UHGV virus genome: UHGV-0155082
Direction: 5' to 3' (one strand)
From: a virus
Length of the DNA stretch: 35,424 bases
Under the pieces are notes generated by a model. That model was not told the origin of the DNA and searched no databases. It saw nothing but the letters and a program-made list of their open reading frames with translations. The first letter of the stretch is position 1. Each line of letters starts with the position of its first letter. Made by a program: the position numbers and the translations under genes. Below are positions 50-35,374 of this stretch, piece after piece.

Positions 50-1579
50 TTAGTTTTCATTTTGGGAAATTTTTTCCAGAACTGAGTCAACCATTTTTAT
101 TCCCATCTCATTTACTACATCAGAATTAATAACTCTATCAAAATAGCTTTCTATATGTTGGGAAAAAAGGAAGGCTGCACTGGATGGTTCTTTGTTCTTT
201 TCAACTGCGTATTGCAGAACCATATGAGGAGGCACATGTGCATTTTTGCAGGATGCAACAAGGTACTCAAATTCATCAAAAGCTAAGCAAAATATATTTT
301 CTTTAGGTATGTGGTAGTCAGTATTGAATTTATCATATATCTTTAGCATCTCAGTTTCTGCATATGTACTGGCAAGGAATGTACCATTACCTAAAAATAA
401 GTTTTTATATGTAATGCATATCACAAAAGATTCTTTCCTGAATGGGGTTATTGTTGCTTTATCGTCTAAGTAAATTTCTCTGTTAACTTCATGAGCTTGC
501 TCGATAGCTTTTAAAACAGACTTTTTTATTTTTCCTGAAATATCCTCTGGCCGTAAAGTAACCATGCCTTTTTGATGTATTTCAACCCCCTTGGCATCAA
601 TGAATATATTTGCATTCGCGTGTGGAAACAAAAAATCAACTACTTTATTATCTTTGGGTAACTTTTCTTTAAGATGATCCTCTGTGATAACAGGAATATT
701 ACTCTCTTGAATAATTTTTCCTAATGCTCTTTCGAATACAGTTCCAAAACTGTCCATGAATTTTTCAGCGTCAGTTCTTCTTAAAAGGTCATATATAAAT
801 GTTTGTATGCTTCTTGATGTTAGTTGTGCATGTATCTGGAAATAATCAGAACCTTTTTTGATTAAAGGATTTTCTAAGTACGGTGAAGATGAATAGTATT
901 CTAACAAAGGCTTTTCAAATGTCTTGGATTTTGAAAATTTTGATAGCTCACTGTAATTTATTGAGATTGCATCGAGAAAGTTCTCTACGGTATCTTTGGG
1001 TAAAATAGGGAATAACACACTGAAACTATTGACATTTATTTTTCTGACGGGATGTTCCGTTGTTATTAGTGATATTAAAATGTAAGATAGTTTTAAAAAA
1101 TCATCAATTGAAATGTTTGTTAACTTGAAAAACGATGTCTTTATTTTATGAGTGTTTTCGAGTTGTGAGAATAAAAATACCTGTCTGCTAATGGAGTTTA
1201 TTGCGTCAATTTTTTGATAAATACCTTGTTGGTATAAATTATTTCTTAGAAAAAAATGCACTCCGTTTTTCTTTTCAAGACCAATGGGGATGATACTTAA
1301 AGTTTCATAGGCTTTTTGAAATAGCTTGATGGCTTGATTTTTTGTAAGGGTTTTGAACTTTCTATTCTTGCCTATTACAGATGCTGACCATTTTAAACAT
1401 AAGTTTACTATCCACGGCATATGACGCAGCATGTGTAAATTATCATCAAATTTTTGTAGATTATATTGCATGCAGAATTCAATGAATAATTCGGGGTTAT
1501 AACTTTGAATTTCTGAACGAATAGAGTCCATTCTCAGTTTAGCAACAGCATCTGATTGAATGTCTATATTTTTAATCAC
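50..1579 (-). CDS. Hypothetical 509-aa protein, AT-rich accessory gene immediately downstream of int on the same strand; possible PD-(D/E)xK-like nuclease motif in the C-terminal half
   Basis: Long ORF with GTG start at 1579 preceded on the minus strand by GGAG about 8 nt upstream. Only 12 nt separate it from the int stop. Visibly AT-rich codon usage unlike the phage core. Motif VDFLFPHANANIFIDAKGVE resembles a D...(D/E)xK nuclease core. No family recognised by eye. Confidence 0.55.
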   Translation of the reverse strand: MIKNIDIQSDAVAKLRMDSIRSEIQSYNPELFIEFCMQYNLQKFDDNLHMLRHMPWIVNLCLKWSASVIGKNRKFKTLTKNQAIKLFQKAYETLSIIPIGLEKKNGVHFFLRNNLYQQGIYQKIDAINSISRQVFLFSQLENTHKIKTSFFKLTNISIDDFLKLSYILISLITTEHPVRKINVNSFSVLFPILPKDTVENFLDAISINYSELSKFSKSKTFEKPLLEYYSSSPYLENPLIKKGSDYFQIHAQLTSRSIQTFIYDLLRRTDAEKFMDSFGTVFERALGKIIQESNIPVITEDHLKEKLPKDNKVVDFLFPHANANIFIDAKGVEIHQKGMVTLRPEDISGKIKKSVLKAIEQAHEVNREIYLDDKATITPFRKESFVICITYKNLFLGNGTFLASTYAETEMLKIYDKFNTDYHIPKENIFCLAFDEFEYLVASCKNAHVPPHMVLQYAVEKNKEPSSAAFLFSQHIESYFDRVINSDVVNEMGIKMVDSVLEKISQNEN

Positions 1580-1591
1580 GATTATTCTCCA

Positions 1592-2605
1592 TTATAAATT
1601 GTGCAGAGGATTTTTGGTCACAGCATCTTCAAGATGTTCTGGGGCAAAATGAGCGTAAACCATTGTCATTTTAATATCTGAGTGCCCAAGAATATCGCGC
1701 AGAACCAGAATATTCCCGCCATTCATCATAAAATGACTGGCGAATGTATGACGCAGCACGTGGGTGCATTGGCCCTCTGGTAGCTCGATGCCTGCTCGCT
1801 TTACTGCTCGTTCAAAGGCTTTTCTGCACGGGGTGAATAGCTTCCCTCTGTTCTTGGGGAGTTCGTCATACAGATTTTGAGATATCGGCACGGTACGATT
1901 TTTCTTACCTTTTGTCTTGGTATAGGTGATCCGGTATTTTGATAACTGATGGCCCTGCAGGTTTTCTGCTTCACTCCATCGCGCACCAGTAGCCAGGCAT
2001 ATTTTTGCAATCATTAGTAGGCTGGTGTTTTGAGATTCGGCGCAGGCATTAAGCAGGCGTTTGATTTCGTCCGTGGAAAGAAAAGCCAGTTCACCTTCAG
2101 CAATTTTGAAGGTTGGAAGCCCAGCCAGCGGGTTTGGTGCGGACCAGTGTCCTAGTTTTTTCAATGTACCGAACACCGATGACAGGTTACGCTGCTCAAG
2201 ATTAACTGTGCGAGGTTTAACGGGTGACATGAACGAGCCGTCTTCATTTTGGACCTCCCCCTTTAATCTGGCTTCCCGATATTTTGTGAAATCACCTGCT
2301 GTCAGCTCAGAGGCGATGGGATCGCCTAGACCATTACAGATAATTCTAAGTTTCGCCATCAGGCGTTTGGGGTCTGCGAGTGTTTGACCATATAGGGAAT
2401 ACCACTGCTCAATCACTTCTGATAATCGCCGCCGATCTTCCTTCTCACCAAGCCATGGCTTTTTGTTTACTTCGTCCATGGTGAAGTTTTCGAATGCTAT
2501 GGCTTCGCCTTTCGTGGCAAATTGCTTACGCACGCGCTTGCCATTGCGTCCATTGGGATAGCACTCACACAACCATTTTCCGTTCGGCTGTTTTCTGATG
2601 GTCAT
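1592..2605 (-). CDS. int: Phage integrase, tyrosine site-specific recombinase (P2 Int-like)
   Basis: 337 aa, same length as P2 Int. C-terminal catalytic region ...CTHVLRHTFASHF...LGHSDIKMTMVYAHF contains the R/H-x-x-R-H...Y signature of tyrosine recombinases. Sits directly downstream of the repressor gene, as in the P2 C-int operon. Confidence 0.9.
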   Translation of the reverse strand: MTIRKQPNGKWLCECYPNGRNGKRVRKQFATKGEAIAFENFTMDEVNKKPWLGEKEDRRRLSEVIEQWYSLYGQTLADPKRLMAKLRIICNGLGDPIASELTAGDFTKYREARLKGEVQNEDGSFMSPVKPRTVNLEQRNLSSVFGTLKKLGHWSAPNPLAGLPTFKIAEGELAFLSTDEIKRLLNACAESQNTSLLMIAKICLATGARWSEAENLQGHQLSKYRITYTKTKGKKNRTVPISQNLYDELPKNRGKLFTPCRKAFERAVKRAGIELPEGQCTHVLRHTFASHFMMNGGNILVLRDILGHSDIKMTMVYAHFAPEHLEDAVTKNPLHNL

Positions 2606-4957: not shown

Positions 4958-5184
4958 TGGCTGATGCAATGGATCTCGTACAGCAGCGCGTTGAAGAAGA
5001 ACGCCAACGCCATATCCGTGCTGCCCGTGCCAAAACGCCGGGCGTGTCCCGCGTGCTTTGCATTGAGTGTGAAGCGCCAATTCCGCCAGCACGCCGCCGT
5101 GCCATTCCGGGTGTGCAGCTTTGCATTACCTGTCAGGAAATCGCAGAGCTGAAAGGCAAACATTACAACGGAGGTGCTGTATGA
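4957..5184 (+). CDS. DksA/TraR-family C4 zinc-finger protein
   Basis: 75 aa with CIECEAPIP...(17 aa)...CITCQE, i.e. C-x2-C ... C-x2-C typical of the TraR/DksA C4 finger. Start overlaps the upstream stop. Confidence 0.65.
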   Translation: MADAMDLVQQRVEEERQRHIRAARAKTPGVSRVLCIECEAPIPPARRRAIPGVQLCITCQEIAELKGKHYNGGAV

Positions 5185-6038
5185 GCACCATCCTGAAATG
5201 GGCGGGAAATAAAACTGCCATAATGTCCGAACTGAAAAAACATCTTCCTGCTGGCCCGCGACTGGTTGAACCTTTCGCGGGTTCCTGTGCTGTGATGATG
5301 GAGACGGATTATCCCAGCTATCTGGTTGCGGATATTAATCCTGATTTAATCAACATCTATAAAAAGGTTGCCGCTGATTGTGAATCGTTTATATCTCGCG
5401 CCAGAGTTTTATTTAAGGAAGCAAACAGGGAGGTGGCTTATTACAACATAAGGCAGGAGTTTAATTACTCAACTGAAATTACTGATTTCATGAAAGCGGT
5501 ATATTTCCTGTATCTCAATCGTCACGGTTACCGTGGTTTATGTCGCTATAACAAGAGCGGGCATTTCAACATTCCCTACGGTAATTATAAAAATCCGTAT
5601 TTCCCTGAAAAAGAAATTCGCGCATTTGCAGAAAAGGCCCAGCGAGCAACGTTTATCTGCGCCAGCTTTGATGAAACGCTGGCGATGTTGAAGGCGGGGG
5701 ATGTGGTGTATTGCGATCCGCCGTATGACGGTACGTTTTCCGGCTATCACACTGACGGCTTCACTGAAGATGACCAGTATCACCTGGCATCTGTTCTTGA
5801 ACATCGGTCATCAGAAGGACATCCGGTCATTGTTTCTAACAGTGACACATCCCTGATCCGTTCGCTGTATCGCAATTTTACTCACCACTACATCAAGGCA
5901 AAACGCAGCATCGGTGTGGCAGCTGGCGAGGGTAAATCAGCAACAGAAATCATTGCTGTTTCCGGGCCGCGCTGCTGGGTGGGATTTGATTATTCGCGTG
6001 GCGTGGATAGTTCTGCCGTGTACGGAGTACGTGCATGA
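5181..6038 (+). CDS. dam: DNA adenine methyltransferase (Dam-like, N6-adenine MTase)
   Basis: ATG at 5181 preceded by GGAGGTG. N-terminal [11 protein letters not shown]...EPFAGSCAV (AdoMet-binding motif I) and catalytic DPPY motif ([10 protein letters not shown]). Confidence 0.85.
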
Positions 6039-8449
6039 GTCATGCCGATATGAACAACTGCTGCGGCTTTAACGAAGCTGCCGCATCGTTCTCATGGAAC
6101 AGCCCGAAAAAGGCCATTAACCCTTATCTGGACCCGGTGGAAGTTGCGCCGGTTTCTACGCTTTCAAACCTGATCACTCTGTACGCTGCCGATAACGAGC
6201 AGGAACAGCTGCGCCGTGAGGCGCTGAGTGATCAGGTCTGGGAGCGTTATTTCTTTAATGAATCCCGTGATCCTGTCCAGCGCGAAATGGAACAGGATAA
6301 GCTCATTAGTCGGGCAAAGCTGGCGCATGAGCAGCAGCGTTTTAATCCGGATATGGTCATTCTGGCGGACGTCAACGCCCAGCCCTCCCATATCAGCAAG
6401 CCGCTGATGCAACGTATTGAATATTTCAGCAGCCTGGGCAGGCCAAAGGCTTATTCCCGCTATTTGCGTGAGACGATTAAGCCATGTCTGGAACGACTGG
6501 AGCATGTCCGCGACTGTCAGCTATCCACTTCTTTTCGCTTTATGGCAAGCCATGAAGGGCTGGATGGCCTGCTTATCCTGCCTGAAATGAGTCAGGATCA
6601 GGTGAAGCGCCTGTCTACCCTTGTCGCTGCGCATATGAGCATGTGCCTTGATGCCGCTTGTGGTGATTTGTATGCCACCGATGACGTTAAGCCAGAAGAA
6701 ATCCGCAAAACATGGGAAAAGGTGGCAGCGGAAACCCTGCGTCTGGATGTTATTCCGCCTGCGTTTGAGCAACTCCGTCGGAAAAGAAACCGCCGTAAAC
6801 CCGTGCCCTATGAACTCATTCCGGGTTCGTTGGCGCGTATGTTGTGTGCCGACTGGTGGTATCGGAAATTATGGAAGATGCGTTGCGAATGGCGGGAAGA
6901 GCAGTTGCGTGCTGTCTGCCTGGTCAGCAAAAAAGCATCCCCCTATGTCAGCTATGAAGCCGTGATGCATAAACGTGAGCAGCGCCGTAAGTCGCTGGAG
7001 TTTTTCCGTTCTCATGAACTGGTGAACGAAGACGGCGACACGCTGGATATGGAAGATGTGGTAAACGCCAGCAGCAGCAACCCGGCGCATCGCCGCAATG
7101 AGATGATGGCCTGTGTTAAAGGTCTGGAGCTTATCGCGGAAATGCGCAGTGACTGCGCCGTTTTCTACACTATCACCTGTCCGTCGCGTTTCCATTCCAC
7201 GCTCAATAACGGCAGACCCAACCCGACCTGGACAAACTCGACGGTAAGACAAAGCAGCGACTATCTGGTCGGCATGTTTGCTGCATTTCGTAAGGCGATG
7301 CACAAAGCCGGATTGCGCTGGTATGGCGTGCGGGTGGCTGAGCCGCATCATGACGGTACAGTTCACTGGCACCTGTTGTGTTTTATGCGCAAAAAAGACC
7401 GCCGCGCCATCACTGCATTACTGCGTAAGTTTGCCATCCGTGAAGACCGCGAGGAGCTGGGCAATAACACTGGGCCGCGCTTTAAGTCTGAGTTGATTAA
7501 CCCGCGCAAAGGAACGCCGACAAGCTACATCGCGAAATATATCAGTAAGAACATTGACGGGCGTGGTCTGGCTGGCGAGATCAGCAAGGAAACGGGTAAA
7601 TCTCTGCGTGATAACGCTGAATACGTTAATGCCTGGGCGTCTCTGCATCGTGTTCAGCAATTCCGCTTCTTTGGCATTCCGGGGCGTCAGGCTTACCGTG
7701 AACTGCGATTGCTGGCTGGTCAGGCGGCAAGGCAACAGGGTGACAAAAAAGCAGGTGCTCCGGTACTGGATAACCCGCGCCTTGATGCCATTCTGGCTGC
7801 TGCTGATGCTGGCTGTTTTGCCACCTACATTATGAAGCAGGGCGGCGTGTTGGTTCCCCGCAAATATCACTTGATCAGAACCGCTTATGAAATCAACGAA
7901 GAGCCGACCGCCTATGGCGATCACGGCATTCGTATTTATGGCATCTGGTCACCCATTGCAGAGGGCAAGATCTGCACTCATGCAGTGAAGTGGAAAATGG
8001 TTCGTAAGGCCGTTGACGTTCAGGAGGCGGCAGCCGACCAGGGCGCTTGCGCCCCTTGGACTCGTGGCAATAACTGTCCCCTTGCTGAAAATTTGTACCA
8101 ACAAGGGAAAGACAAATCAGCTGATGGAGATACCAGAACGGATATCACCCGCATGGATGACAAGGAGTTGCACGATTACCTGCACAGTATGAGCAAAAAA
8201 GAGCGCCGGGAACTGGCTGCAAGGTTACGCCTGGTGAAACCGAAACGGCGTAAAGACTACAAACAGCGAATTACAGACCATCAGCGACAGCAGCTCGTCT
8301 ATGAACTGGAGTCCAGAGGATTTAATGGCAGCGAGAAAGAGGTCGATTTACTCCTTCGCGGCGGCAGTATTCCGTCAGGAGCAGGTCTGCGTATCTTCTA
8401 TCGGAACCAGCGTTTGCAGGAAGATGATAAGTGGCGAAACCTGTATTAA
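6035..8449 (+). CDS. A: Replication initiation endonuclease (P2 gpA-like rolling-circle initiator)
   Basis: 804 aa. HUH-type motif VHWHLLCF and paired active-site tyrosines YIAKYISKN. Start overlaps the dam stop (ATGA). Position after the early genes as in P2. Confidence 0.9.
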
Positions 8450-8541
8450 TTACGAGGGTTAACAATTCGTGCTCTTAATAATACCAGGCATATCAGGCTG
8501 ATGAACGTAAAAAAACGTTTTGCATCAGTAAGATTATTATA

Positions 8542-8561
8542 TACTGTAAATATAAACAGTG
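8542..8561. promoter_or_regulatory. LexA (SOS) box
   Basis: taCTGTaaatataaACAGtg matches the CTGT-N8-ACAG SOS-box consensus. Lies about 40 bp upstream of the RBS and ATG of the 8603 ORF. Confidence 0.65.
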
Positions 8562-8602
8562 GTTATGTATACAGTATTGCTTGTGGTGTCATAGGAGGAA
8601 AG

Positions 8603-8791
8603 ATGCAGGACTATTTTTTGGAGTCTTTGAAGCTCCAGCGCATTGATTTTTTTCTTAAGCTTGTAGCGGCTAGTGAGTGTAGTGATGAAGAGAAGGGGCT
8701 GGCTTTGCAGTGGGTTTCTGAACTGACAGATGAACTCATGGCAAAAATCAGAAGCCACGAATACAACCGCTCAATGGATGTCATCAGCTGA
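8603..8791 (+). CDS. Small SOS-regulated protein (62 aa), possible Tum-like antirepressor
   Basis: ATG at 8603 preceded by AGGAGG. Directly downstream of the LexA box. Followed by a DinI-like ORF, an arrangement reminiscent of 186 tum. Confidence 0.45.
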   Translation: MQDYFLESLKLQRIDFFLKLVAASECSDEEKGLALQWVSELTDELMAKIRSHEYNRSMDVIS

Positions 8792-8801
8792 GGGGACTTT
8801 T

Positions 8802-9035
8802 ATGCGCATTGAAATAATGATCGATAAAGAGCAGAAGATTAGCCAGTCTACCCTGGACGCCCTTGAATCCGAGCTTTACCGCAATCTGCGCCCCCTGTAT
8901 CCCAAAACGGTAATTCGTATCCGTAAAGGTAGCTCTAACGGTGTGGAACTGACCGGACTGCAACTGGACGAAGAAAGGAAGCAAGTGATGAAAATTATGC
9001 AGAAGGTGTGGGAAGACGACAGCTGGCTGCATTAA
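8802..9035 (+). CDS. DinI-family protein
   Basis: 77 aa starting MRIEIMIDK...; the pattern MRIE..I.K......DAL..EL.R.......P....V.....S.......G..........I..I....WE..D.W matches E. coli DinI. RBS GAGGGGA upstream. Confidence 0.75.
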   Translation: MRIEIMIDKEQKISQSTLDALESELYRNLRPLYPKTVIRIRKGSSNGVELTGLQLDEERKQVMKIMQKVWEDDSWLH

Positions 9036-9305
9036 GAAACGTTGCTGGCGTCTGAACTTGCTTCTGGCGTCAGCAAGGTTGAACAACGAGCTGTGCGAGG
9101 CGTTAGTGTCAATTTGTTACCTTAACCACGATATATGCCAGGAAATTAACAGTTCTTAAGAAACCGCTTGCATGATCGAGCGCATTGAACTTAAGTTTAA
9201 GTAACGAAATCAACAGATGATATTGTTGTCTAAATTTTAAAGATAATCTGTTGAGGTTGTAGGCGTCGGAGTGTAGACTTCCGCGCCATGTAAAAAGGGG
9301 GAGTT

Positions 9306-9521
9306 ATGTCAAGCATCGCCGCATTTAGCCTGGGTAACCCAGTTGAACGTCTGGCAAGGGTTCTTAAAGAGAACCAGGACAAACTCAATCTTAGTAAAGA
9401 TGGTTTTGTGTCCGTAGACTTGTCTAACAAAAGAGCAATGGATGCCATCAAGGCACAGATGGATAAGCTTGAAGGCATCAAAACGAGCACTGTAAAAGAG
9501 AAAACTAATAGAACCAGATAA
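9306..9521 (+). CDS. Hypothetical 71-aa soluble protein, first gene of a two-gene accessory operon
   Basis: ATG preceded by AAGGGGGAG. Stop TAA overlaps the ATG of the downstream 280-aa gene (TAATG). No recognisable motif. Confidence 0.5.
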   Translation: MSSIAAFSLGNPVERLARVLKENQDKLNLSKDGFVSVDLSNKRAMDAIKAQMDKLEGIKTSTVKEKTNRTR

Positions 9522-10363
9522 TGGCAACATTACTTTTAGCAGTGATTTTGGTTAGTGGTTTTATTTATGTAAACCTATCACTTTCAACAAGATACCGATA
9601 TAAGCGTTCCAACGGCTGGGACGCTTATTTTTTTGTGGCTGCCTGGGGTATCGTTTTTTTTCTCCTTGGCGGTTTTTTCACCTTTATTTTGAACGTCAGC
9701 GGAGGGTTTCGTTGGCTGGCTAATGCCTTGAATCTAACACCTGACAGTTTTAATGGCATGTTGTCTTCATCGAAAGACAAACTTCAAAGAATAAATGAAA
9801 TCAAACAGATAGCATGGGTTATGATTTCAATTGTCCTCGCTGCGATTTCAGGTTTTGGAAATAAGTTACGCACATCACGTGGAGATCGTCGCTGGGATGC
9901 CTTAGCTAAAGCTGTGGGTAATAACGCTTTCGAATCATTACTCATGGAAGCGTCCGCAAGACAGTTTCCGATCATAGCAACTCTGTCGTCTCGCAAAATC
10001 TATGTTGGTCTTGTTACTTGTCCGGCGTTAGAAAACGGGCTTTCAGAGCACCTTGAACTTCTCCCGATGTTAAGCGGATATCGGGATAAAGATGATCTAA
10101 CGATTAGTATCACGACTAACTATCACCAACATTATCTTGATAGTGGTGTGATAAGTGGAATGTCTCGTCTTAATATCGAAGATTTCCGTGTGCTCATACC
10201 AAAAGATGAGGTTGAAACAATTTCGTTTTTTGATACTGAGACATATAACAAATTTAAAGAAAATGAAGCCAGGGATAGAAAGAGCTGTCGAAAGATTGGT
10301 AGTAAAAGTGCATCTTCGCGCAGCAAGCGTGCAGCAGATGCTGAGTCAAATGATCGTGCATGA
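9521..10363 (+). CDS. Hypothetical 280-aa integral membrane protein (three predicted TM helices plus a charged C-terminal domain)
   Basis: Hydrophobic segments LLLAVILVSGFIYVNLSL, AYFFVAAWGIVFFLLGGFFTFIL and IAWVMISIVLAAISGFG. Lysine/serine/arginine-rich C-terminal tail. Occupies the position of tin/old in P2. Followed by a terminator. Confidence 0.6.
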   Translation: MATLLLAVILVSGFIYVNLSLSTRYRYKRSNGWDAYFFVAAWGIVFFLLGGFFTFILNVSGGFRWLANALNLTPDSFNGMLSSSKDKLQRINEIKQIAWVMISIVLAAISGFGNKLRTSRGDRRWDALAKAVGNNAFESLLMEASARQFPIIATLSSRKIYVGLVTCPALENGLSEHLELLPMLSGYRDKDDLTISITTNYHQHYLDSGVISGMSRLNIEDFRVLIPKDEVETISFFDTETYNKFKENEARDRKSCRKIGSKSASSRSKRAADAESNDRA

Positions 10364-10410
10364 CTATGCTGCATGAGATCGCATGATCGTTTGAGGATCG
10401 TTTTTGCTAA

Positions 10411-10436
10411 GGCCCGCCAGAACTGGCGGGCTTTTG
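10411..10436 (+). terminator. Rho-independent terminator after the 71-aa/280-aa operon
   Basis: GC-rich hairpin gcccgccag / ctggcgggc followed by TTTT. Confidence 0.65.
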
Positions 10437-10480
10437 CGTAGATCATGCACCTGCATGAAAACTACTACATAAAGCGGGCA

Positions 10481-10499
10481 GGCGTGGCGGGGATACGAG
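10481..10499. other. Candidate cos (cohesive-end) region
   Basis: GC-rich ggcgtggcggggatacgag matches about 14 of 19 positions of the P2 cohesive end as I recall it (ggcgaggcggggaaagcac). Lies in non-coding DNA upstream of the portal/terminase cluster. Recalled from memory and not verified. Confidence 0.3.
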
Positions 10500-10588
10500 C
10501 GCGCGCTGATGGGGGACGCAGTGCTTTTGGCATAGTTATGAGGTAGAATTTCAAAATACTTTTTAGCGCTGTTGGAGGTATAGACAAA

Positions 10589-11134
10589 ATGGACGTTATA
10601 ACTGGAGTTGCAGAGTTTTTTCGAAAAGTACCTGCAGCATTTCTTGTGGCTATTACATGTGTTTTAGGTCTTATACTTTTTCTGCCAGACTCTTTGGCAG
10701 TAAAAGTGGCTGTTGATGGCTTTCGTAATGAGTATAGGATTTTTATTGGACCTGCATTTTTACTGTCTGTATCTTATTTAGTTGCAAGAGTCTATCTCTC
10801 TTTCTATGACTTACTTGGTGAAAGGCAGGCTAAGAAGGTACGCACTTCCTACCTTGAGAAGCTAACAGCAGAAGAAAAAGGATATTTAAAGTCTTATATT
10901 ACCGAAGGTGTTAATTCACTTATGTGTGGGCCTGAGGATGGGGTCATGGGGGGACTTGTGGCTAAGGGGATTACTTATAGAGCCACCAGTGTTGGGGATA
11001 TGATCTACGGTTTTGCTTTCAACTTACAGCCATGGGCGCGTGAACATTTAGAGAAAAATAGTCATTTATTAGATGGGGCTATTGGGCGTGCAATGACTCC
11101 AAGAGAAAAATTAAACTTTAGATTGGGACGCTAA
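10589..11134 (+). CDS. Hypothetical 181-aa membrane protein, possibly a superinfection-exclusion (SieB-like) protein
   Basis: ATG preceded by GGAGG. N-terminal TM helix AAFLVAITCVLGLILFLP and a second hydrophobic segment IFIGPAFLLSVSYLVARVYL. Lies between the cos-like element and the portal gene. SieB assignment is from weak recollection only. Confidence 0.45.
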   Translation: MDVITGVAEFFRKVPAAFLVAITCVLGLILFLPDSLAVKVAVDGFRNEYRIFIGPAFLLSVSYLVARVYLSFYDLLGERQAKKVRTSYLEKLTAEEKGYLKSYITEGVNSLMCGPEDGVMGGLVAKGITYRATSVGDMIYGFAFNLQPWAREHLEKNSHLLDGAIGRAMTPREKLNFRLGR

Positions 11135-11180
11135 CCAGTCACACATTACCAATGTGTGACTGGTGGTGGTTATTTCTTTT
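11135..11180. terminator. Perfect 13-bp inverted repeat (hairpin) with T-rich tail, probable terminator between convergent genes
   Basis: ccagtcacacatt-acc-aatgtgtgactgg (11135..11163) followed by tggtggttatttctttt. Sits between the stop of the 181-aa gene and the stop of Q. Confidence 0.55.
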
Positions 11181-12216
11181 ATTCAATGTCAAATTTATAT
11201 GGTTCAAAAGAAATAACCTTTTCCCCCAACCACTCATTTAGTTCTTCGAGTCTTTTTTGTAGCGGTATTAACTCATTACGGACAAAGACGCGGCTGGCTT
11301 TTTCCACATCACCAAAGCCGCCGGTATTGTTGGGAATAATGCCCATCATTTGCGGCGGCACACGATGCGCCGCCATCATGTCATCCCGGCTCACGTTCTT
11401 GATATTCAAAAACTCATCCTTCGCTGCGACCTCTGACAACGGGATAATCTGAAGGCCGTCTTTTTTGCCGTTGGGCGAGTACATAAACAGGTTTCGGAAG
11501 TTACCCGGACCTTTGGCGCTTTTCATTGCGTTGCGGAGGTTGTTCACATCCTCCTGGTTCTGCGCGGCATCGGTCATATACATGATGAAGCCTGCATGAC
11601 TGCCGTTAATGTAATACTTGCGGCGGAACAGCGTGGCGGACTCGTTGAGCAGGGCTGACGGAATGGCAGAAAGATAACCGGGCAGGCCGTAGATCTCCTG
11701 GTTAATGTCCGGTTCCATCAGATGAAAAATGCTGCCTTTCGTGAACTGATACGGCTGGGTTGTCATACCGTATTGCACAAACCAGTAGGTATCCAGGTCT
11801 AATCCGCGTCGGGTGTATTTTGCCAGCGCAGGTTCAAGGGCGATCACTTCACCGAAGCGGTTCGTGCGTTTCTCCAGGTAGGCGTTACCAAATACCAGAT
11901 AGTCCTGCACAAAACGTGAAAAAGCCTGCTGGCTGAGCAGCGGGTGAGGGATATAGGTGCTGGTCAGAATGTTGCACTTTACTGCAATCGGTGAGCTGTG
12001 GTGCACGGCGGCGCGGAATGTTCGCGCCAGTCCGTCAAAGCTGACGGGCGGCTCATACCAGCGGTCCATCTGTACGCATTCCACATAGTCCAGCAGTTCA
12101 CGGCGGTCCAGAACAGGAACGGGATCGCCAAAGCTGAATGCTTCGGCTGTAGTCTGGCTTTTATGCTTGAGCTGATTCGTCGCCGCAGCGCGGTTTTTCT
12201 TACTCTTTCCCATCAA
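11179..12216 (-). CDS. Q: Capsid portal protein (P2 gpQ-like)
   Basis: 345 aa. Adjacent to and co-oriented with the large terminase, divergent from the O-N-M-L operon, as in P2. Translation reads as a typical P2 portal protein. Confidence 0.85.
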   Translation of the reverse strand: MMGKSKKNRAAATNQLKHKSQTTAEAFSFGDPVPVLDRRELLDYVECVQMDRWYEPPVSFDGLARTFRAAVHHSSPIAVKCNILTSTYIPHPLLSQQAFSRFVQDYLVFGNAYLEKRTNRFGEVIALEPALAKYTRRGLDLDTYWFVQYGMTTQPYQFTKGSIFHLMEPDINQEIYGLPGYLSAIPSALLNESATLFRRKYYINGSHAGFIMYMTDAAQNQEDVNNLRNAMKSAKGPGNFRNLFMYSPNGKKDGLQIIPLSEVAAKDEFLNIKNVSRDDMMAAHRVPPQMMGIIPNNTGGFGDVEKASRVFVRNELIPLQKRLEELNEWLGEKVISFEPYKFDIE

Positions 12217-19093: not shown

Positions 19094-19490
19094 TAAAGCA
19101 GTGCCTTATGTCCGTAATAACCCGGACAAACTGCATCTGTTTGTGGATAACGGTTCGCTGGTTGCCACGGGGGCCAGCTCCATGTCATGGGAGTACCGCT
19201 ACACCCTGAACGTGGTGATAGAGGATTTCAGCGGCGACCAGAATCTGCTGATGGCTCCTGTGCTGCTGTGGCTAAGTGACAACCAGCCGGATGCCATCAA
19301 TAACCCGGATCTGCGTGAAAAACTGTTCACCTTTGAAGTGGATATTCTGCGCAACGATATTTGCGATATCAACCTGAACCTGCAACTGACGGAGCGCGTG
19401 CTGGTCAGTACTGACGGCGGTATATCAACGGTCGAGGCAGAGCCGGAACCTGTCGAGCCAGAAGTAATATGGACGGTGAAACGTGGATAA
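19059..19490 (+). CDS. R: Tail completion protein R (P2 gpR-like)
   Basis: GTG at 19059 preceded by AGGAGCGA; the six-frame ORF begins at 19038. Motif LHLFVDNGSL resembles the gpR N-terminal region. Start coordinate uncertain. Confidence 0.65.
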   Translation: MNKPQSLRHALNKAVPYVRNNPDKLHLFVDNGSLVATGASSMSWEYRYTLNVVIEDFSGDQNLLMAPVLLWLSDNQPDAINNPDLREKLFTFEVDILRNDICDINLNLQLTERVLVSTDGGISTVEAEPEPVEPEVIWTVKRG

Positions 19491-19926
19491 TCTGCACAAG
19501 GTGGACGAGTGGCTGGCGGCGTTGCTGGCGAATCTGGAACCTGCAGCACGTCAGCGAATGATGAAGGAGGTGGCGCAGGAATTGCGCCGGAATCAGCAGC
19601 AGAACATCAGGCTGCAGCGTAATCCTGACGGCAGCGGCTATGAGCCGCGCCGGGTGACAGCCCGCAGCAAGAAGGGGCGCATCAAACGCCAGATGTTTGC
19701 AAAGCTTCGCACGGCGAAATACCTGAAAACATCAGCTAGCGCGGACTCTGCCAGCGTGGAGTTTGCCGGGCAGGTGCAGCGTATTGCTCGCGTTCACCAT
19801 TACGGCTTACGTGAAAAAGTTAATAATTCAAGGAGGAGTATTAAGTACCCTAAGCGAAATTTACTCGGATTCAATTCTAAGTTTGAGGTAGAAGCGGTTT
19901 TATTGAATTTTTTATTGAAACAATGA
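19483..19926 (+). CDS. S: Tail completion/virion morphogenesis protein S (P2 gpS-like), with an AT-rich, apparently replaced 3' end
   Basis: 147 aa, GTG start overlapping the R stop. The last roughly 40 codons (…REKVNNSRRSIKYPKRNLLGFNSKFEVEAVLLNFLLKQ) switch abruptly to AT-rich codons. Confidence 0.65.
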   Translation: MDNLHKVDEWLAALLANLEPAARQRMMKEVAQELRRNQQQNIRLQRNPDGSGYEPRRVTARSKKGRIKRQMFAKLRTAKYLKTSASADSASVEFAGQVQRIARVHHYGLREKVNNSRRSIKYPKRNLLGFNSKFEVEAVLLNFLLKQ

Positions 19927-19973
19927 GTGCTGAAAGTTATATTGTTGCTTTTATTTGACTGCTTAGGTGTCAA

Positions 19974-21089
19974 GTGTTAGCAAATAATCAAATAATTGAT
20001 GTGCCCGCAGCTGGAAGCTTTAATTTTATTACCGGAGATAATGGGACCGGTAAAACAAGGTTTTTGACAATTCTGGCCAATTCGGTTTTAAATGATTTGA
20101 TTTCGAGTAGTAGTGAATATGATAAATTAATTTGCCTGACTGGTACTGTTTATGAGAAATTCCCTAGGCCATTAAAAAAGAAAGATTATAAAAGTGAGAA
20201 ATACGATAGAGTATATTCTTATTTTGGCGGCAGGGTGAACAATAACGTTTTCTCAGGTCTCTCGCCTTTTAGAGTTATAATGAAATGCTATTGTGGGTTT
20301 GAAATAAATCCTGGTTCTTTTGAGTTGGCAGATAAATTATTAAATGATCTTGGATTTAGTTCTACGGTGGAATGTAAGTTTAGAAATGAAAAGTCTAAGT
20401 TGGAGAATAGACGCTCTATAATCAACAATGAGGATGTAACTGTAGATTTATCTAAGTCTCCGTCACAACTGACTAACATGAAAAGGCAAAGCATTGCTAA
20501 TGATGATTTGTTCTTATTAAATATAAATTTTGTTAAGCTTTCTGATAAAAAATCATATGGCATACGAGATCTGAGTTCTGGTGAACGAAGTTTTATAATA
20601 ACAATATTGTCACTTGTGTTTAGTTTGAGAGAGCGAACCCTCATTTTATTTGATGAGCCAGAGAACTCAATGCACCCTAAATGGCAGGAGAAAATAATAT
20701 CAACAATTAAGTATATTGTTGATATGCTATCACCTGAATCAACTGTAATAATTGCAACTCATTCCCCATTGGTTGTTTCATGTGTGACAAATAATAATAC
20801 ATTTACATTGAATTTGCCTGGTGAGCACATATGGAAAGCTTCATATTATGCTGGTAATAACGCTGATTCAGTGTTAAAGGAACAGTTTGGGGTGATCTCG
20901 CCAAGATCTGAAGAATTTCAGATTGCTATGCAAAAATGTTTGACTTCATTTAGTTTGAATGAAGAAGGTGGTTCTTTCTTGCAGGATATGGAGCGATTGT
21001 TTGGGATGAAAATATCCTTAAATAAGGATGACCCACTTTATGATGCTTATGAGACACTTACGGATTTTTATCTGGAGAGGAAACTATGA
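19974..21089 (+). CDS. ABC-type/AAA_21-like ATPase, Septu PtuA-like candidate defence ATPase
   Basis: 371 aa, AT-rich. Walker A GDNGTGKTR (residues about 21-29), signature-like LSSGERS, Walker B LILFDEPE, H-loop-like ATHSPLV. GTG start with AGGTG upstream. Stop overlaps the start of the HNH gene (ATGA). Confidence 0.75.
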   Translation: MLANNQIIDVPAAGSFNFITGDNGTGKTRFLTILANSVLNDLISSSSEYDKLICLTGTVYEKFPRPLKKKDYKSEKYDRVYSYFGGRVNNNVFSGLSPFRVIMKCYCGFEINPGSFELADKLLNDLGFSSTVECKFRNEKSKLENRRSIINNEDVTVDLSKSPSQLTNMKRQSIANDDLFLLNINFVKLSDKKSYGIRDLSSGERSFIITILSLVFSLRERTLILFDEPENSMHPKWQEKIISTIKYIVDMLSPESTVIIATHSPLVVSCVTNNNTFTLNLPGEHIWKASYYAGNNADSVLKEQFGVISPRSEEFQIAMQKCLTSFSLNEEGGSFLQDMERLFGMKISLNKDDPLYDAYETLTDFYLERKL

Positions 21090-21775
21090 GCTTGGGTCCG
21101 GGGAAGCTAAGTCCGGTGCATAGGGTTTTTATAAACAGAAGGGAAGCTAGACTGTTGATAGCTGAATTTCTTTCTGGAACAATTCTTTGGTCTGATCCAA
21201 AGTTATCTGCGCTAAAGAATAATATAAGGCTCTCTTTACGAGAGCAGCAATGTGGGCGTTGTGTTTTTTGTCGGAGAATAATAAAAGAGGAGCGCAGAAA
21301 CACTACTGAAGATATTGAGCACTTTCTGGATAAATCCAAAGGGTACTATAAGAAATGGGCCTTTCATCCTATGAATTTATCTATAGCATGTCACTCATGC
21401 AACTTTGTTAAAAGTACGAAGCAAATGGGAGATGTTAATATTCAGCGCGCGCAGTATCTAGTGCCTGGTATTGGTGTGTTTAGGTGGTTGCATCCATATT
21501 TTGACGACTATCATGAAAATATCTCAATAGAGAAGGGTTGGGTATATCGTATTGTTGATGGAGCGCCAAATCATAATGGAGCAGAAAATTTAATTAGAGA
21601 ATGTGAGTTGTCGGGAATAGCTAATATAGAACGCAATGCTGAGAATTATAAATTGACCTGTCAAAGGCTATTAAAGTTAGCAATTGCTTGTGCCGAAAAA
21701 GGTCGAATTACACGAATGAAAAAATTGCAGTTGTCTTTGCAGAAATTAATGGAATCGAAACAATTTGACTTTTAG
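21086..21775 (+). CDS. HNH endonuclease, Septu PtuB-like candidate defence nuclease
   Basis: 229 aa. CGRCVFC ... EDIEHFLDKSKGYYKKWAFHPMNLSIACHSCN gives an H...N...H core flanked by C-x2-C pairs (zinc-finger HNH). Translationally coupled to the upstream ATPase. Confidence 0.8.
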   Translation: MSLGPGKLSPVHRVFINRREARLLIAEFLSGTILWSDPKLSALKNNIRLSLREQQCGRCVFCRRIIKEERRNTTEDIEHFLDKSKGYYKKWAFHPMNLSIACHSCNFVKSTKQMGDVNIQRAQYLVPGIGVFRWLHPYFDDYHENISIEKGWVYRIVDGAPNHNGAENLIRECELSGIANIERNAENYKLTCQRLLKLAIACAEKGRITRMKKLQLSLQKLMESKQFDF

Positions 21776-21785
21776 TAGGATTTAA

Positions 21786-21828
21786 AGGAGCAAGATCGAA
21801 TTGCTACTTTGCTCCTCTTGCCCTTTTT
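21786..21828 (+). terminator. Probable terminator after the ATPase-HNH cassette
   Basis: Stem aggagcaa / ttgctcct (21786..21816) followed by cccTTTTT. Confidence 0.45.
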
Positions 21829-21861
21829 AAGTATCAAAATGACTGCTGCTTGAAATCAAAT

Positions 21862-21879
21862 TGTATTGTGAATGATACA
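21862..21879. promoter_or_regulatory. Ogr/Delta-type activator site (TGT-N12-ACA) of the V late promoter
   Basis: TGTattgtgaatgatACA, immediately upstream of the V gene start region and downstream of the inserted cassette. Confidence 0.55.
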
Positions 21880-21926
21880 ATTTGGTACTCATGCAAATTC
21901 CATCTAGTGCATGTAATCATAACCTG

Positions 21927-22505
21927 ATGAATGCACAACTTACAGAAATCATGCGTCTTATCACCAACCTGATCCGCACCGGCACCGTGACCGAAGTGGA
22001 CCGGGAAAACTGGCTTTGCCGGGTGAAAACAGGCGACCTCGAAACCAACTGGATTAACTGGCTGACGCTGCGCGCGGGCAAATCGCGCACCTGGTGGAAA
22101 CCGTCTGTGGGCGAGCAGGTTGTGCTATTCAGCCTGGGCGGCAATCTGGAAACCGCGTTTGCCCTGCCTGCTGTCTACTCAAATCAGTTTCCGCCACCTT
22201 CAGACTCTGAGGACGGCAACGTGGTTGAGTACCCGGACGGCGGCAGGTTTGAGTACGAACCCGCCACCGGGCGATGGTACGTCCGGGGTATCAAGTCCAT
22301 GGTGATCGAGGCGGCAGACAATATCACCCTCAAAACAGGTCAGTTTGTGGTGGAGGCTGACACCACACGCATTAACAGCGAGGTGGTGATCAACGGCGGC
22401 GTCACCCAGGGCGGAGGCGCGATGAGTTCCAACGGAGTCGTGGTTGACGACCATGAGCATACTGGCGTTCTGAAAGGCGGTGATAACACAGGAGGCCCGG
22501 TATGA
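21927..22505 (+). CDS. V: Baseplate spike/assembly protein V (P2 gpV-like)
   Basis: IMRLITNLIRTGTVTEVD...WINWLTLRAGKSRTWWKPSVGEQVVLF is characteristic of gpV. Start uncertain: the six-frame ORF begins at 21882, with in-frame ATGs at 21891, 21927 and 21951. Confidence 0.8.
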   Translation: MNAQLTEIMRLITNLIRTGTVTEVDRENWLCRVKTGDLETNWINWLTLRAGKSRTWWKPSVGEQVVLFSLGGNLETAFALPAVYSNQFPPPSDSEDGNVVEYPDGGRFEYEPATGRWYVRGIKSMVIEAADNITLKTGQFVVEADTTRINSEVVINGGVTQGGGAMSSNGVVVDDHEHTGVLKGGDNTGGPV

Positions 22506-26374: not shown

Positions 26375-26501
26375 CTGAGAATTAAATGGTTAGTATCATC
26401 CTCCCCCACACTGCCTATATGGTATGAATACGAGGGGGAGGCTGTTTGTTGTCTGTTTCTGTGATAATATTAGATTCTCGTTTTTTAATAAAAAAATCAA
26501 T

Positions 26502-27512
26502 ATGAAAGAGAATAAAATACGTTCTGCCGATGGCGTGAGAGGTTTCGCTTTGATGATTGTTGTGGTGATGCATGCTACGGGACTATTCTTTCCCTCACTT
26601 CATGATCATCTCGGAGGTACGGGGCAGCCCGGTGTTTGGTTGTTTTTTGTTCTTAGCGCCTTTTTGTTGACACATAAATTTATTAATTCTGGTTTTTCGT
26701 TTTTGAATGTGTTGAGTTATCTTTTAGGGCGAACAATAAGGATATTACCGATTTTTTATATTGCAGTATTAATTTATTACCTTATGGGATTTTATGATTT
26801 AGAGAAAATGAAATCGATAATTTCATTTGATAGTACTTACATCCATCTCTGGACTATTCCGATAGAATTCAAGTTTTACTTTTTGTTGCCGATTGTGGTT
26901 TATCTCGCATCTAGTATCCAGAAAGTTGCAGGTAGAAAATATTCTTTGTTGTTTTTGATATTGTTAACCTTAGCGTTCGCTTTTATATACCCTTATACGG
27001 ATGACGAAATCAACGGTAGGCTACCGTATTACATTCCTGTTTTTATGTATGGAATTATAATTGCGTTTATGTATAACTATTTTCAAATTAAAATATCATC
27101 TCTCGTTAGTGATGGGGTGTCAATTGCGATTATATTAATATTTATAATGTTGACCCCTCCTTTTCAGGGGGCTAATGGTTGGCTGGGTAATAAATTTGTG
27201 GTATTAGGGCCATTTATTGCTCTCTTTGTATATCTGCAAGTAAATTCCAGTGGGTATGTAAGCGCGGTTTTATCTTCAAAAATCATGGCGGATTTGGGGA
27301 AATATAGTTTTTCAATTTATTTGTTTCATATAATGATAATTTTTATTGTTTATCCTAAATTTTTGGATAATGTTACTGCATACTTAGTTACTATAGCTTT
27401 ATGTATTGGCGGTGGGGCTATTGCCTATCATTGCATTGAATCTCCCTTGGAATCGTTCAGACATAAGCTTATGAAAAGAATAACGCAGGCTTATCAGAAT
27501 CAAAATATTTAA
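26502..27512 (+). CDS. Acyltransferase family 3 integral membrane protein (OafA/Oac-like, probable O-antigen/LPS acyltransferase)
   Basis: AT-rich ORF; the six-frame ORF begins at 26424 and the likely ATG is at 26502. N-terminal R-x-x-D-G-V-R-G-x-A...H motif (IRSADGVRGFALMIVVVMHATG) of the acyltransferase_3 family. About 10 hydrophobic segments. Located between G and FI. Confidence 0.75.
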   Translation: MKENKIRSADGVRGFALMIVVVMHATGLFFPSLHDHLGGTGQPGVWLFFVLSAFLLTHKFINSGFSFLNVLSYLLGRTIRILPIFYIAVLIYYLMGFYDLEKMKSIISFDSTYIHLWTIPIEFKFYFLLPIVVYLASSIQKVAGRKYSLLFLILLTLAFAFIYPYTDDEINGRLPYYIPVFMYGIIIAFMYNYFQIKISSLVSDGVSIAIILIFIMLTPPFQGANGWLGNKFVVLGPFIALFVYLQVNSSGYVSAVLSSKIMADLGKYSFSIYLFHIMIIFIVYPKFLDNVTAYLVTIALCIGGGAIAYHCIESPLESFRHKLMKRITQAYQNQNI

Positions 27513-34872: not shown

Positions 34873-34894
34873 AACCTGCTACGGCAGGTTTTTA
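34873..34894. terminator. Bidirectional rho-independent terminator between ogr and the convergent BRCT-domain gene
   Basis: Hairpin aacctgc-tacg-gcaggtt followed by TTTTTATT on the plus strand; T-rich on the other strand as well. Confidence 0.65.
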
Positions 34895-35374
34895 TTCATC
34901 TGGGATCTCACCCGTTTCAAGAAAATGTATAAAGCCAGGCTCATCTATGATGATTGTGCCTTTCATCCTGGCTGCCGATACTTTTGATGGGCCTGCATTG
35001 TAACCGCAACAGAGCATCTGAAGGCTTTGGGTTACAGAGGTTCTTACCGTTAATCCTTGGTCATTCGCCTTATCAACCAATCTTTCTTTATCTGCTTTCT
35101 TAAATCCGGTGAAACACACATCGAATGTATTTTTTTTCGGACCTGACTGCTTAGTGAGATGTGAGTAGTTTTCGGGGAGGAATGACGCGCATTCCTGAAT
35201 GGCTTGTTCTGGTGAATCGTACTGTTTAAGAATGCGGTCTTTTCGGAAGGTTTTTATTCGATCGGTGTTTTTACAAATGCCCTGTATATGATTTTCGCTA
35301 TAACTGATGCTCTGTATAGAGTGAACACCGATACGACCATTTGCATTGATGTAAACAAAGTGAAGTTCTTCCAT
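34892..35374 (-). CDS. Small BRCT-domain protein (160 aa), function unknown
   Basis: The C-terminal 80 aa (FDVCFTGFKKADKERLVDKANDQGLTVRTSVTQSLQMLCCGYNAGPSKVSAARMKGTIIIDEPGFIHFL) align by eye to the NAD-ligase BRCT domain pattern (TG...R..a......G..v..SV...t..lv.G..aGsK..kA...G..iI.E..f). N-terminal 70 aa unassigned. Confidence 0.5.
   Translation of the reverse strand: MEELHFVYINANGRIGVHSIQSISYSENHIQGICKNTDRIKTFRKDRILKQYDSPEQAIQECASFLPENYSHLTKQSGPKKNTFDVCFTGFKKADKERLVDKANDQGLTVRTSVTQSLQMLCCGYNAGPSKVSAARMKGTIIIDEPGFIHFLETGEIPDE

Follow-up and report, generated by a model that had tools for sequence, protein, structure and literature searches.

The late-gene region of the P2-like, 186-type prophage analyzed here (UHGV-0155082; "the window" denotes the whole stretch of 35,424 nucleotides) carries two AT-rich open reading frames between genes S and V, which raises the question of what this pair encodes and how it came to reside among conserved phage genes. 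We consider it highly probable that the two genes constitute a stand-alone (type I) Septu system, carried as cargo in the S/V (orf30) slot of the prophage, for which protective activity is predicted.

The two genes are adjacent and co-oriented and overlap by 4 nt (ATGA, 21086-21089), as described in the first-pass annotation, whose 2 ORFs were recovered at the coordinates given in Table 1. Likewise, the description of the insert as strikingly AT-rich was confirmed, with a GC content of 0.31-0.40 over approximately 19815-21926 compared to 0.55-0.60 in the flanking P2-like late region; the two ORFs themselves are situated in an island of 33-39% GC. BLAST of the window against three relatives (L001, L002, and L003) placed the homology breakpoints at 19814 and 21927. 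While the ORFs do lie between the end of S and the TGT-N12-ACA site of the V promoter, as had been proposed, the foreign stretch is not limited to them but begins 112 nt inside S. The dN/dS values determined against the copy from K. aerogenes amount to 0.095 for ptuA and 0.078 for ptuB, and both ORFs are therefore regarded as real genes. Purifying selection on both of them is strong.

Table 1. Features of the ptuAB cassette and its surroundings. Positions refer to nucleotides of the window or, for protein elements, to residues.
Feature	Position	Strand	Details
Gene S	19483..19926	+	Tail completion protein, 147 aa; PHROG phrog_26, E=3.9e-46
Exchanged low-GC segment	19815..21926	+	S tail, ptuAB, and spacer 5' of V; BLAST breakpoints
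Sigma-70-like promoter candidate	19915..19943	+	TTGAAA-17-TATATT; overlaps S stop, 30 nt 5' of ptuA start
ptuA	19974..21089	+	GTG start, 371 aa
ptuB	21086..21775	+	ATG start, 229 aa
Hairpin, possible weak terminator	21784..21826	+	3' of ptuB stop
Ogr-type late-activator site (predicted)	21862..21879	+	TGT-N12-ACA, dyad TTGTAT...ATACAA; V late promoter
Gene V	21927..22505	+	Baseplate spike, 192 aa; ATG start
PtuA elements	Walker A G21-T28; signature L200-E204; Walker B L223-E228; H-loop H263		
PtuA helical C-terminal extension	residues ~297 to 370		AlphaFold monomer model
PtuB features	zinc ligands C59/C62/C102/C105; catalytic H79; N97/N106		Predicted zinc-binding and nuclease residues
PtuB helical C-terminal domain	residues ~163-224		AlphaFold monomer model

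The first protein, PtuA, contains the full set of ABC/AAA_21-type motifs that had been read from its sequence, with GDNGTGKTR at residues 21-29, LSSGERS at 200-206, LILFDEPE at 223-230, and ATHSP at 261-265, and its Walker A, signature, Walker B, and H-loop motifs are invariant across 64 homologues. In Pfam, AAA_21 (E=1.7e-19) and AAA_15 both passed their cut-offs. Within the PADLOC profiles, PtuA matched with E=4.4e-41 and 8 PtuA models scored below 1e-26, with the competing profiles AriA (1.8e-21), PDC-M01, and Nsn being far weaker. The AlphaFold model (mean pLDDT 85.9) had PtuA chains as its top Foldseek matches (9vhe_D, 3.6e-8; E. coli Septu 8eea_C, 6.5e-7; also 8ee4). By sequence, the best match in the PDB was AriA (8v45, 5.6e-10; 8.5e-16 with a profile), slightly ahead of the solved PtuAs.

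The latter match, the AriA score in PADLOC, and the presence of PARIS in the S/V slot of relatives are in line with a PARIS-like system, or another abortive-infection pair of an ABC-ATPase and a nuclease in which an AriA-type sensor releases a toxin, rather than Septu proper. However, the PADLOC models of PtuA are 20 orders of magnitude ahead of AriA for the ATPase, Foldseek puts PtuA chains first, and the partner is an HNH protein matching PtuB instead of a DUF4435/Toprim AriB; no AriB match was obtained for it, although AriB was recognized in L001 by the same search. PARIS membership was rejected with PtuB/HNH in the place of AriB, and we regard this reading as quite improbable.

It had also been remarked that the ATPase is short and might be a compact or divergent variant. 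It is indeed compact, but this is no oddity: dozens of homologues measure 355-375 aa, PADLOC PtuA models of 375-386 positions align collinearly with the 371-aa protein, and in the 505-aa forms an extra N-terminal domain is the sole addition. The short length is a family trait and not the result of a truncation.

The second protein, PtuB, had been annotated as an HNH nuclease with zinc-type Cys pairs. With Pfam reporting no HNH domain in it, but only a sub-threshold zf-CXXC, the assignment is upheld on the basis of PADLOC, invariant residues, and structure. The PtuB profile matched with E=1.3e-27, and the protein contains C59xxC62, E78-H79, N97, and C102xxC105-N106, of which both CxxC pairs, the EH, N97, and N106 are invariant in 63 PtuB homologues. 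Its AlphaFold model (mean pLDDT 95.4) adopts a beta-beta-alpha-Me fold, for which Foldseek listed the PtuB of a type I-A retron first (9n69_F, 2.1e-5), followed by the HNH domains of Cas9 and Cap5, with further matches to the solved PtuB chains 9u9y_H and 9vhl_F. The single sequence gave no match against the PDB, and the family profile retrieved 9n69_F at 1.8e-7 with the CxxC and EHF aligned. H79 and N97 match, in motif position rather than in a direct alignment, H75 and N91 of Septu EcB88, the mutation of which abolishes defence (PMC13096335).

The pairing of an ATPase with an HNH nuclease had been recognized as the Septu architecture, and this was corroborated by the PADLOC assignments to PtuA and PtuB as well as by the closest solved structures, which are those of PtuA and PtuB. 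Profile searches could have placed the pair in a non-defence family, but had the opposite outcome, as PADLOC assigned both proteins to Septu. The solved PtuA and PtuB chains share only ~12-20% of residues with the two proteins, and Foldseek gave TM-scores of 0.3-0.55. With regard to the type of Septu, the nearest NCBIfam names are the retron Ec78 PtuA and PtuB together with TIGR02646 ("retron system putative HNH endonuclease"), and the best structural matches are retron-associated PtuAB chains, which would suit a type I-A retron (Septu type II) effector module orphaned by loss of its reverse transcriptase (RT) and ncRNA and hence unregulated or non-functional. However, the NCBIfam equivalogs of the retron Ec78 PtuA and PtuB scored far below cut-off (37 vs 500 and 32 vs 150 bits, respectively), because of which membership was rejected. 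Furthermore, the RT gene and msr-msd required of a type I-A retron were not found: no RT ORF was seen beside the cassette, whose immediate neighbours are S and V, Rfam detected no family, including retron RNA, in the window, and no RT Pfam domain is present in the called genes of 11 loci across five ptuAB contexts. In addition, retron-type PtuAs measure ~550 aa and contain extra msDNA-binding elements (bioRxiv 10.1101/2025.05.10.653283), and the strong purifying selection argues against decay, rendering an orphan retron module very unlikely. Since neither an RT ORF nor a retron RNA was found, the pair is assigned to stand-alone (type I) Septu.

The ptuAB pair with its 4-nt overlap was identified in five contexts (E. 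coli, K. aerogenes, K. pneumoniae, S. fonticola, and V. fluvialis), two of which are non-phage chromosomal sites and one a defence island. Furthermore, at least 35 PtuB clusters match a PtuA cluster in the size of the longest contig, and the ptuA-ptuB pairing is shown to be obligate. In a K. pneumoniae prophage, ptuAB occupies the Z/fun-equivalent site, while the Serratia pair adjoins a restriction-modification system (DNA_methylase and NgoMIV_restric) and putAbiC (AbiC). The chromosomal copy of K. aerogenes is located behind an S pseudogene with the same S tail and the same intergenic sequence, and this relic represents a clean case of a prophage defence cassette retained by the host beyond the decay of the phage. 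Sequence comparison shows that the cassette has moved horizontally between prophage slots and chromosomal islands. Megablast of the cassette DNA yielded no match in 50,697 phage records or 5,426 complete E. coli genomes; it is rare in those collections, and relatives were located via protein look-up only.

HNH homing endonucleases are common between conserved genes in phage genomes, and this habit, as well as the 229-aa protein having received no Pfam domain call, would fit a selfish homing endonuclease that was inserted between conserved phage genes along with an unrelated ATPase and has no role in defence. However, the nuclease is always accompanied by the ATPase and the 4-nt overlap across all five contexts, the two chromosomal sites and the defence island included, and it possesses a PtuB-type helical C-terminal domain. 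Moreover, empty sites show replacement of the flanks by recombination and not a precise homing insertion. We therefore consider a homing element extremely improbable.

For the Septu cassette, these flanks are informative about its arrival. From 19815 onward, the 3' part of S has been replaced by a divergent and AT-rich tail, with homology to empty-site relatives ending at 19814, and the C-terminal ~37 aa of S differ among the window, the empty-site L002, and the PARIS-bearing L001; the divergent S tail travels with the cargo. Recombination inside the S 3' end and 5' of V would have brought the cassette in, with another P2-like phage that already had ptuAB at S/V as the putative donor. A V start at TTG 21882 was rejected, since homology resumes exactly at the ATG at 21927, which is the annotated V start in L001-L003. 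The V gene of L004, as called, encodes 192 aa with Phage_base_V.

The promoter candidate at the end of S matches the consensus in 10 of 12 positions, and the K. aerogenes copy has kept both hexamers; this sigma-70-type promoter would probably give the pair transcription of its own in the lysogen. We do not claim an intrinsic terminator 3' of ptuB, as the hairpin found there (MFE -17.4 kcal/mol, z = -1.0 vs shuffles) is no better than shuffled sequences and was missed by the terminator scan. The TGT-N12-ACA motif shows no enrichment across the window (8 occurrences vs 8.5 expected), and the site at 21862-21879 was accepted because of its positional conservation instead: it occupies the same position 5' of V in all relatives, regardless of whether the slot is empty, PARIS-filled, or Septu-filled. 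From established P2 late-promoter biology, we infer that it would serve the late activator. With the cassette being co-oriented with the late operon, read-through is possible in the lytic cycle of the prophage, a point against the Septu reading in that the phage would then have to avoid harming itself.

S/V had been suggested as an additional cargo slot beside the two classical ones of P2. It does take up cargo, with about half of the relatives occupied there, but the slot is not new, as it corresponds to the known orf30 locus, which together with the TO region (tin/old) and the Z region (Z/fun) makes up the three foreign-gene loci of P2-like phages (PMC3091744, PMC2771037, PMC6823313). Cargo was present in 37 of 79 IMG/VR relatives (42 empty) and in 28 of 55 members of an E. 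coli sample (27 empty), with an S-V spacer of 68 bp in the empty alleles. At least 20 cargo classes were found at S/V in the sampled relatives, several of them without a known defence annotation; the unannotated cargo includes 304-aa, 271-aa, and 481-aa families in L016, L037, and L083. In close relatives, the cargo comprises PARIS (in ON470620, L011, and H85), SIR2-like, GmrSD-like, NucC-like, PDC-S15/S31, TIR, and AIPR, and these surveys strongly confirm that S/V holds defence cargo. Published surveys of defence hotspots in P2-like phages focus on gpA-gpQ and Z/fun and name late-gene hotspots in general terms only. [quoted passage not shown]

By analogy with Septu/PtuAB systems whose mechanism has been described, PtuA dimers would hold PtuB via a helical bundle of the PtuA C-terminal extension (CTE) and the PtuB C-terminal domain (CTD), and the monomer models, with helical C-termini in both proteins, are consistent with a CTE/CTD bundle, which in PtuAB typically has nine helices. 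The ATP-bound state would keep the HNH nuclease inactive until a cue from the phage, falling ATP, or both release or activate PtuB for the cleavage of a nucleic acid, so that phage replication would be stopped in an abortive-infection-like manner. The substrates reported in the same literature are tRNA-Tyr in two characterized systems and DNA in others (PMC13096335, PMC12640716, bioRxiv 10.1101/2025.05.10.653283). Trigger and substrate vary among Septu homologues.

The Septu locus itself is ordinary, in that ptuAB would be picked up by such existing tools as PADLOC and, in all probability, DefenseFinder, and the finding is correct but unexceptional because S/V is a known variable site filled with many defence genes in relatives. 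Its wider value lies in the S/V slot, with ~50% occupancy by PARIS, Septu, other defence systems, PADLOC candidate families, and several unannotated proteins. We tentatively propose, at somewhat less than even confidence, that the compact (~360-375 aa) PtuA clade may be a functionally distinct Septu subtype, with another oligomer, trigger, or nucleic-acid target, and that S/V may constitute, as yet without explicit description, a major hotspot for defence genes in this P2-like lineage. If true, S/V could be mined for new systems as the gpA-gpQ hotspot was. The compact clade offers a small and tractable form of Septu with which structures and mechanisms can be compared.

Compared to known systems, the pair shares its two-gene operon, in which the gene for an ABC-type ATPase precedes that for an HNH nuclease, with EcSeptu (8ee4/8ee7/8eea) and Septu EcB88 (PMC13096335), as well as all ATPase motifs, the catalytic H/N, the four zinc cysteines, helical C-termini fitting a PtuA-CTE/PtuB-CTD bundle, the lack of an RT, and the location on mobile elements. 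However, PtuA measures 371 aa compared to 465 aa in EcSeptu, and the Walker A Lys and Walker B Asp are 200 residues apart compared to 273 in EcB88 (K43 to D316); a compact PtuA is absent among the characterized Septu systems. EcSeptu is a 6:2 oligomer, stoichiometries of 6:2 or 4:2 being characteristic of PtuA-PtuB complexes. Protection dependent on ATPase and HNH residues is known from distant homologues only (PMC13096335). The effectors of type I-A retrons (PtuAB of Retron-Eco7/Ec78 and Eco4/Ec83; 9n69, 9kjx, 9nnb, 9e8z) are the closest structures and have the same HNH active-site layout, but their PtuAs measure ~540-550 aa, in that of Ec78 an N-terminal extension is present together with a helical flap for msDNA binding, and the pair described here comes without RT or msDNA. 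PARIS (AriA/AriB) is alike in its related ABC-ATPase sensor, its two-gene abortive-infection organization, and its use of the S/V slot in sister prophages, and differs in its effector, a DUF4435/Toprim nuclease instead of an HNH nuclease, and in lying on the opposite strand at S/V. Finally, orf30 of P2 is found in the same place between S and the V late promoter and likewise consists of AT-rich foreign DNA; while the locus in P2 consists of just one ORF, whose function is unknown, the window and its relatives carry recognizable defence systems.

The gene pair in the S/V slot is a further Septu system, carried at a known variable locus of a P2-like prophage. The first-pass annotation had read it as Septu-like (PtuA/PtuB), and PADLOC placed it in the Septu defense family. 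The top match was PtuA for ORF1 (E = 4.4e-41, with eight PtuA models under 1e-26) and PtuB for ORF2 (E = 1.3e-27), while runner-up families were much weaker (AriA, 1.8e-21; PDC-M01A, 2.8e-19; HNH_I-A, 2.1e-10; NsnC, 4.1e-8). In Pfam, ORF1 matched AAA_21 (1.7e-19) and AAA_15, and no significant match was found for ORF2. AlphaFold models were confident (mean pLDDT 95.4 for PtuB and 85.9 for PtuA), and in Foldseek searches against the PDB the top hits were solved chains of the same families, PtuA for ORF1 (9vhe_D, 3.6e-8; E. coli Septu 8eea_C, 6.5e-7; 8ee4) and PtuB for ORF2 (9n69_F, 2.1e-5; then 9n6b_F, 9u9y_H, and 9vhl_F), the latter followed by Cas9 and Cap5 HNH domains. Furthermore, the PtuB family profile matched 9n69_F at 1.8e-7, with the CxxC, the EHF, and the second Cys/Asn block aligned. 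A retron I-A module, which would also contain PtuA and PtuB, was considered: the NCBIfam retron Ec78 PtuA/PtuB equivalogs gave matches far under their cut-offs, the window gave no Rfam match, and no ORF for a reverse transcriptase was found next to the cassette. Thus, this module was ruled out, and by its sequence the pair is classified as a stand-alone (type I) Septu.

Both ORFs were confirmed where they had been annotated, overlapping by 4 nt (ATGA, 21086-21089), as was their AT-rich composition, with a GC content of 0.31-0.40 in the cassette region compared to 0.55-0.60 in the flanks. All ATPase motifs quoted in that annotation were found in PtuA, namely Walker A (GDNGTGKT, residues 21-28), the signature LSSGE (200-204), Walker B (LILFDE, 223-228), and the ATHS H-loop (261-264). 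In alignments of 64 PtuA and 63 PtuB homologues, invariant residues comprised Walker A, S201-S202-G203-E204, D227-E228, and H263 of PtuA, as well as C59, C62, E78, H79, N97, C102, C105, and N106 of PtuB. Relative to a copy in Klebsiella aerogenes, omega is 0.095 for ptuA and 0.078 for ptuB; purifying selection on the two is strong, and they are real genes. In the same comparison (window 19974-21775 against 6001-7802 of the K. aerogenes chromosomal locus L005), dS was 0.51 for ptuA and 1.77 for ptuB, a more than three-fold gap. The cassette is thus itself a mosaic, which suggests that recombination took place near the ptuA/ptuB junction.

Features of the S/V cassette and of the gpA-gpQ hotspot in the window
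Feature	Position	Strand	Remarks
ptuA (ORF1)	19974..21089	+	GTG start, 371 aa
ptuB (ORF2)	21086..21775	+	ATG start, 229 aa
Promoter-like TTGAAA-17-TATATT	19915-19943		consensus match only; conserved in K. aerogenes copy
Exchanged segment	19815-21926		homology breakpoints versus relatives
Ogr-type dyad TGT-N12-ACA	21862-21879		position conserved in empty, PARIS-filled, and Septu-filled slots
DinI-like protein	8730-9035		gpA-gpQ hotspot
Unknown 280-aa protein	9521-10363		phrog_3630; gpA-gpQ hotspot
SieB superinfection-exclusion family protein	10589-11134		gpA-gpQ hotspot

On either side of the cassette, the sequence shares 89-91% identity with Peduoviridae, among them Escherichia phage 500465-1 (Wadgaonvirus) and Klebsiella phage 4LV2017 (Elveevirus), both of which have a spacer of just 68 bp between S and V. 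Homology to these empty-slot relatives ends at 19814, 112 nt inside S, and restarts exactly at 21927, which delimits the exchanged segment. Since V is annotated to start at the position corresponding to 21927 in the relatives (MNAQLTEIMRL...), we place the true V start there and not at the mechanically listed TTG at 21882. The exchanged segment carries its own S C-terminus, which is AT-rich yet alignable (KVNNSRRSIKYPKRNLLGFNSKFEVEAVLLNFLLKQ). The TGT-N12-ACA site that the first-pass annotation had noted downstream of the pair was recovered, and its positional conservation argues that the V late promoter is intact behind the cargo.

The same annotation had proposed S/V as an additional cargo slot. 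It is indeed a cargo slot, albeit not an additional one, as the S/V region (orf30 in P2) is already named, together with the TO and Z regions, among three P2-like loci with horizontally acquired genes (PMC3091744; PMC2771037, PMC6823313). Studies of defense hotspots have focused on gpA-gpQ (PMC9122126) and Z/fun (PMC9519451; bioRxiv 10.1101/2024.10.15.618418), and a 2026 preprint describes further, less populated hotspots "within the late genes" and "downstream of GpL", with S/V unnamed (bioRxiv 10.64898/2026.02.27.708500). Of 5,426 complete E. coli genomes, 1,065 contained related prophages. Slots were counted by hand from record spans in a spread sample of loci that had both flanks: 27 of 55 were empty and 28 filled, the annotated cargo including TIR, GmrSD/DUF262, AIPR, AAA+DUF4435, a Sll1717-type P-loop ATPase, DUF6216, hypotheticals, and IS elements. 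DUF6216 was among the commonest annotations, occurring in 9 of the 28 occupied slots, with two E. coli B-derived strains among the carriers. Among IMG/VR slots, 42 of 79 were empty and 37 filled, with approximately 23 insert sizes. Seven of 10 representative cargo proteins matched PADLOC families (SIR2/ThsA-like of two kinds, NsnA/PD-T4-2_A, PDC-S31, a NucC-like PD-DExK nuclease, PDC-S15, and fused AriAB), and no PADLOC match was obtained for the families of 304, 271, and 481 aa (IMG/VR loci L016, L037, and L083). In phage vB_EcoM-813R9, moreover, this slot contains PARIS, encoded on the opposite strand (AriA, 5.7e-40; AriB, 2.3e-24). S/V is therefore a busy defense slot in this P2-like lineage, which is of modest interest beyond routine annotation. 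Septu was seen in none of the sampled E. coli or IMG/VR slots and is thus a rare S/V allele. Its orientation is also uncommon: a gene was called in 29 of the 37 occupied IMG/VR slots, and in 27 of these it lies on the minus strand and so runs antisense to the late operon, as does the 962-bp insert class (8 loci; checked in L055). The window pair is co-oriented with the late genes, and the only other plus-strand cargo was the SIR2-like protein of L013/L014.

An identical PtuA is encoded in E. coli GCA_017016875.1, also in S/V context (97.3% identity to the window over 11 kb). The K. aerogenes copy (91%-identical PtuA with a 229-aa partner) lies in a non-prophage chromosomal region near ybjM/grxA/rimK. 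Its homology to the window extends from 19653, inside S, to the ptuB stop, with a remnant of the 3' half of S, which is frameshifted and contains stops, followed by the AT-rich S tail and intergenic sequence also present in the window. The copy represents a relic of an S/V-slot cassette from a decayed P2-like prophage. In the region L005 3699-5953, a DUF6216 gene adjoins the S pseudogene and ptuAB, and the island looks like accumulated former S/V-slot cargo. More distant pairs were found after the tail-fiber genes of a K. pneumoniae P2-like prophage, a Z/fun-equivalent position (57% identity), next to a type II R-M system (DNA_methylase and NgoMIV_restric) and a putative AbiC in Serratia fonticola (56%), and on the chromosome of Vibrio fluvialis (41%). 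The 4-nt overlap is kept in all 5 contexts, and at least 35 PtuB clusters match a PtuA cluster in the size of their longest contig. The pair is mobile among defense contexts.

Other variable loci of the window are occupied as well. The gpA-gpQ hotspot (TO, tin/old-equivalent; 8400-11400, GC approximately 0.42) holds the genes tabulated above, and between G and FI the Z/fun-equivalent slot (26424-27512, GC 0.35) carries an Acyl_transf_3 acyltransferase, probably a surface-polysaccharide-modifying lysogenic-conversion gene. Together with S/V, all three classical variable loci are thus occupied. An island at 1-1800 (GC 0.30-0.36), on the far side of the integrase gene (1592-2605, minus strand), contains a minus-strand ORF (50-1579) for a 508-aa protein that matched only phrog_14259 (unknown function) and neither Pfam nor PADLOC. 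This candidate cargo occupies the integrase-att position, a minor P2 defense hotspot according to the 2026 preprint. Furthermore, an orphan Dam-type N6-adenine methyltransferase is encoded in the early region directly upstream of gpA (5121-6038; Pfam MethyltransfD12, 5e-77; PADLOC oMTase, 2.6e-111), and a minus-strand 159-aa ORF at the right end, outside the late region (34892-35374), matched phrog_2561 ("DNA ligase", 1.2e-76) and, weakly, PADLOC PDC-S48.

The cassette is an intact, translationally coupled ATPase and HNH pair under selection. In the lysogen it is plausibly expressed from the promoter-like element, and read-through from the late O operon on induction is possible. [quoted passage not shown] ATP binding would restrain the nuclease until infection releases or activates PtuB, as PMC12640716 relates, citing Li et al. 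2024. PtuB would then cut tRNA-Tyr in the variable loop, as in Septu EcB88 (PMC13096335) and Retron-Eco7, or DNA, as in EcSeptu and Retron-Eco4, and phage growth would be blocked in an abortive-infection-like manner.

While the ATPase is short, as had been remarked, its length is no oddity: most homologues among the 120 matches listed span 353-396 aa, PADLOC includes PtuA models 375 and 386 positions long that align nearly collinearly, and 505-aa relatives differ solely by an N-terminal extension of approximately 140 aa. Compactness is thus a family trait. No member of the compact clade was found among the characterized systems in the literature surveyed, and the clade is of modest interest beyond routine annotation. 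In comparison with Septu EcB88, in which Walker A and Walker B are 273 residues apart (K43 to D316; PMC13096335), the spacing in the window PtuA is 200 residues (K27 to D227).
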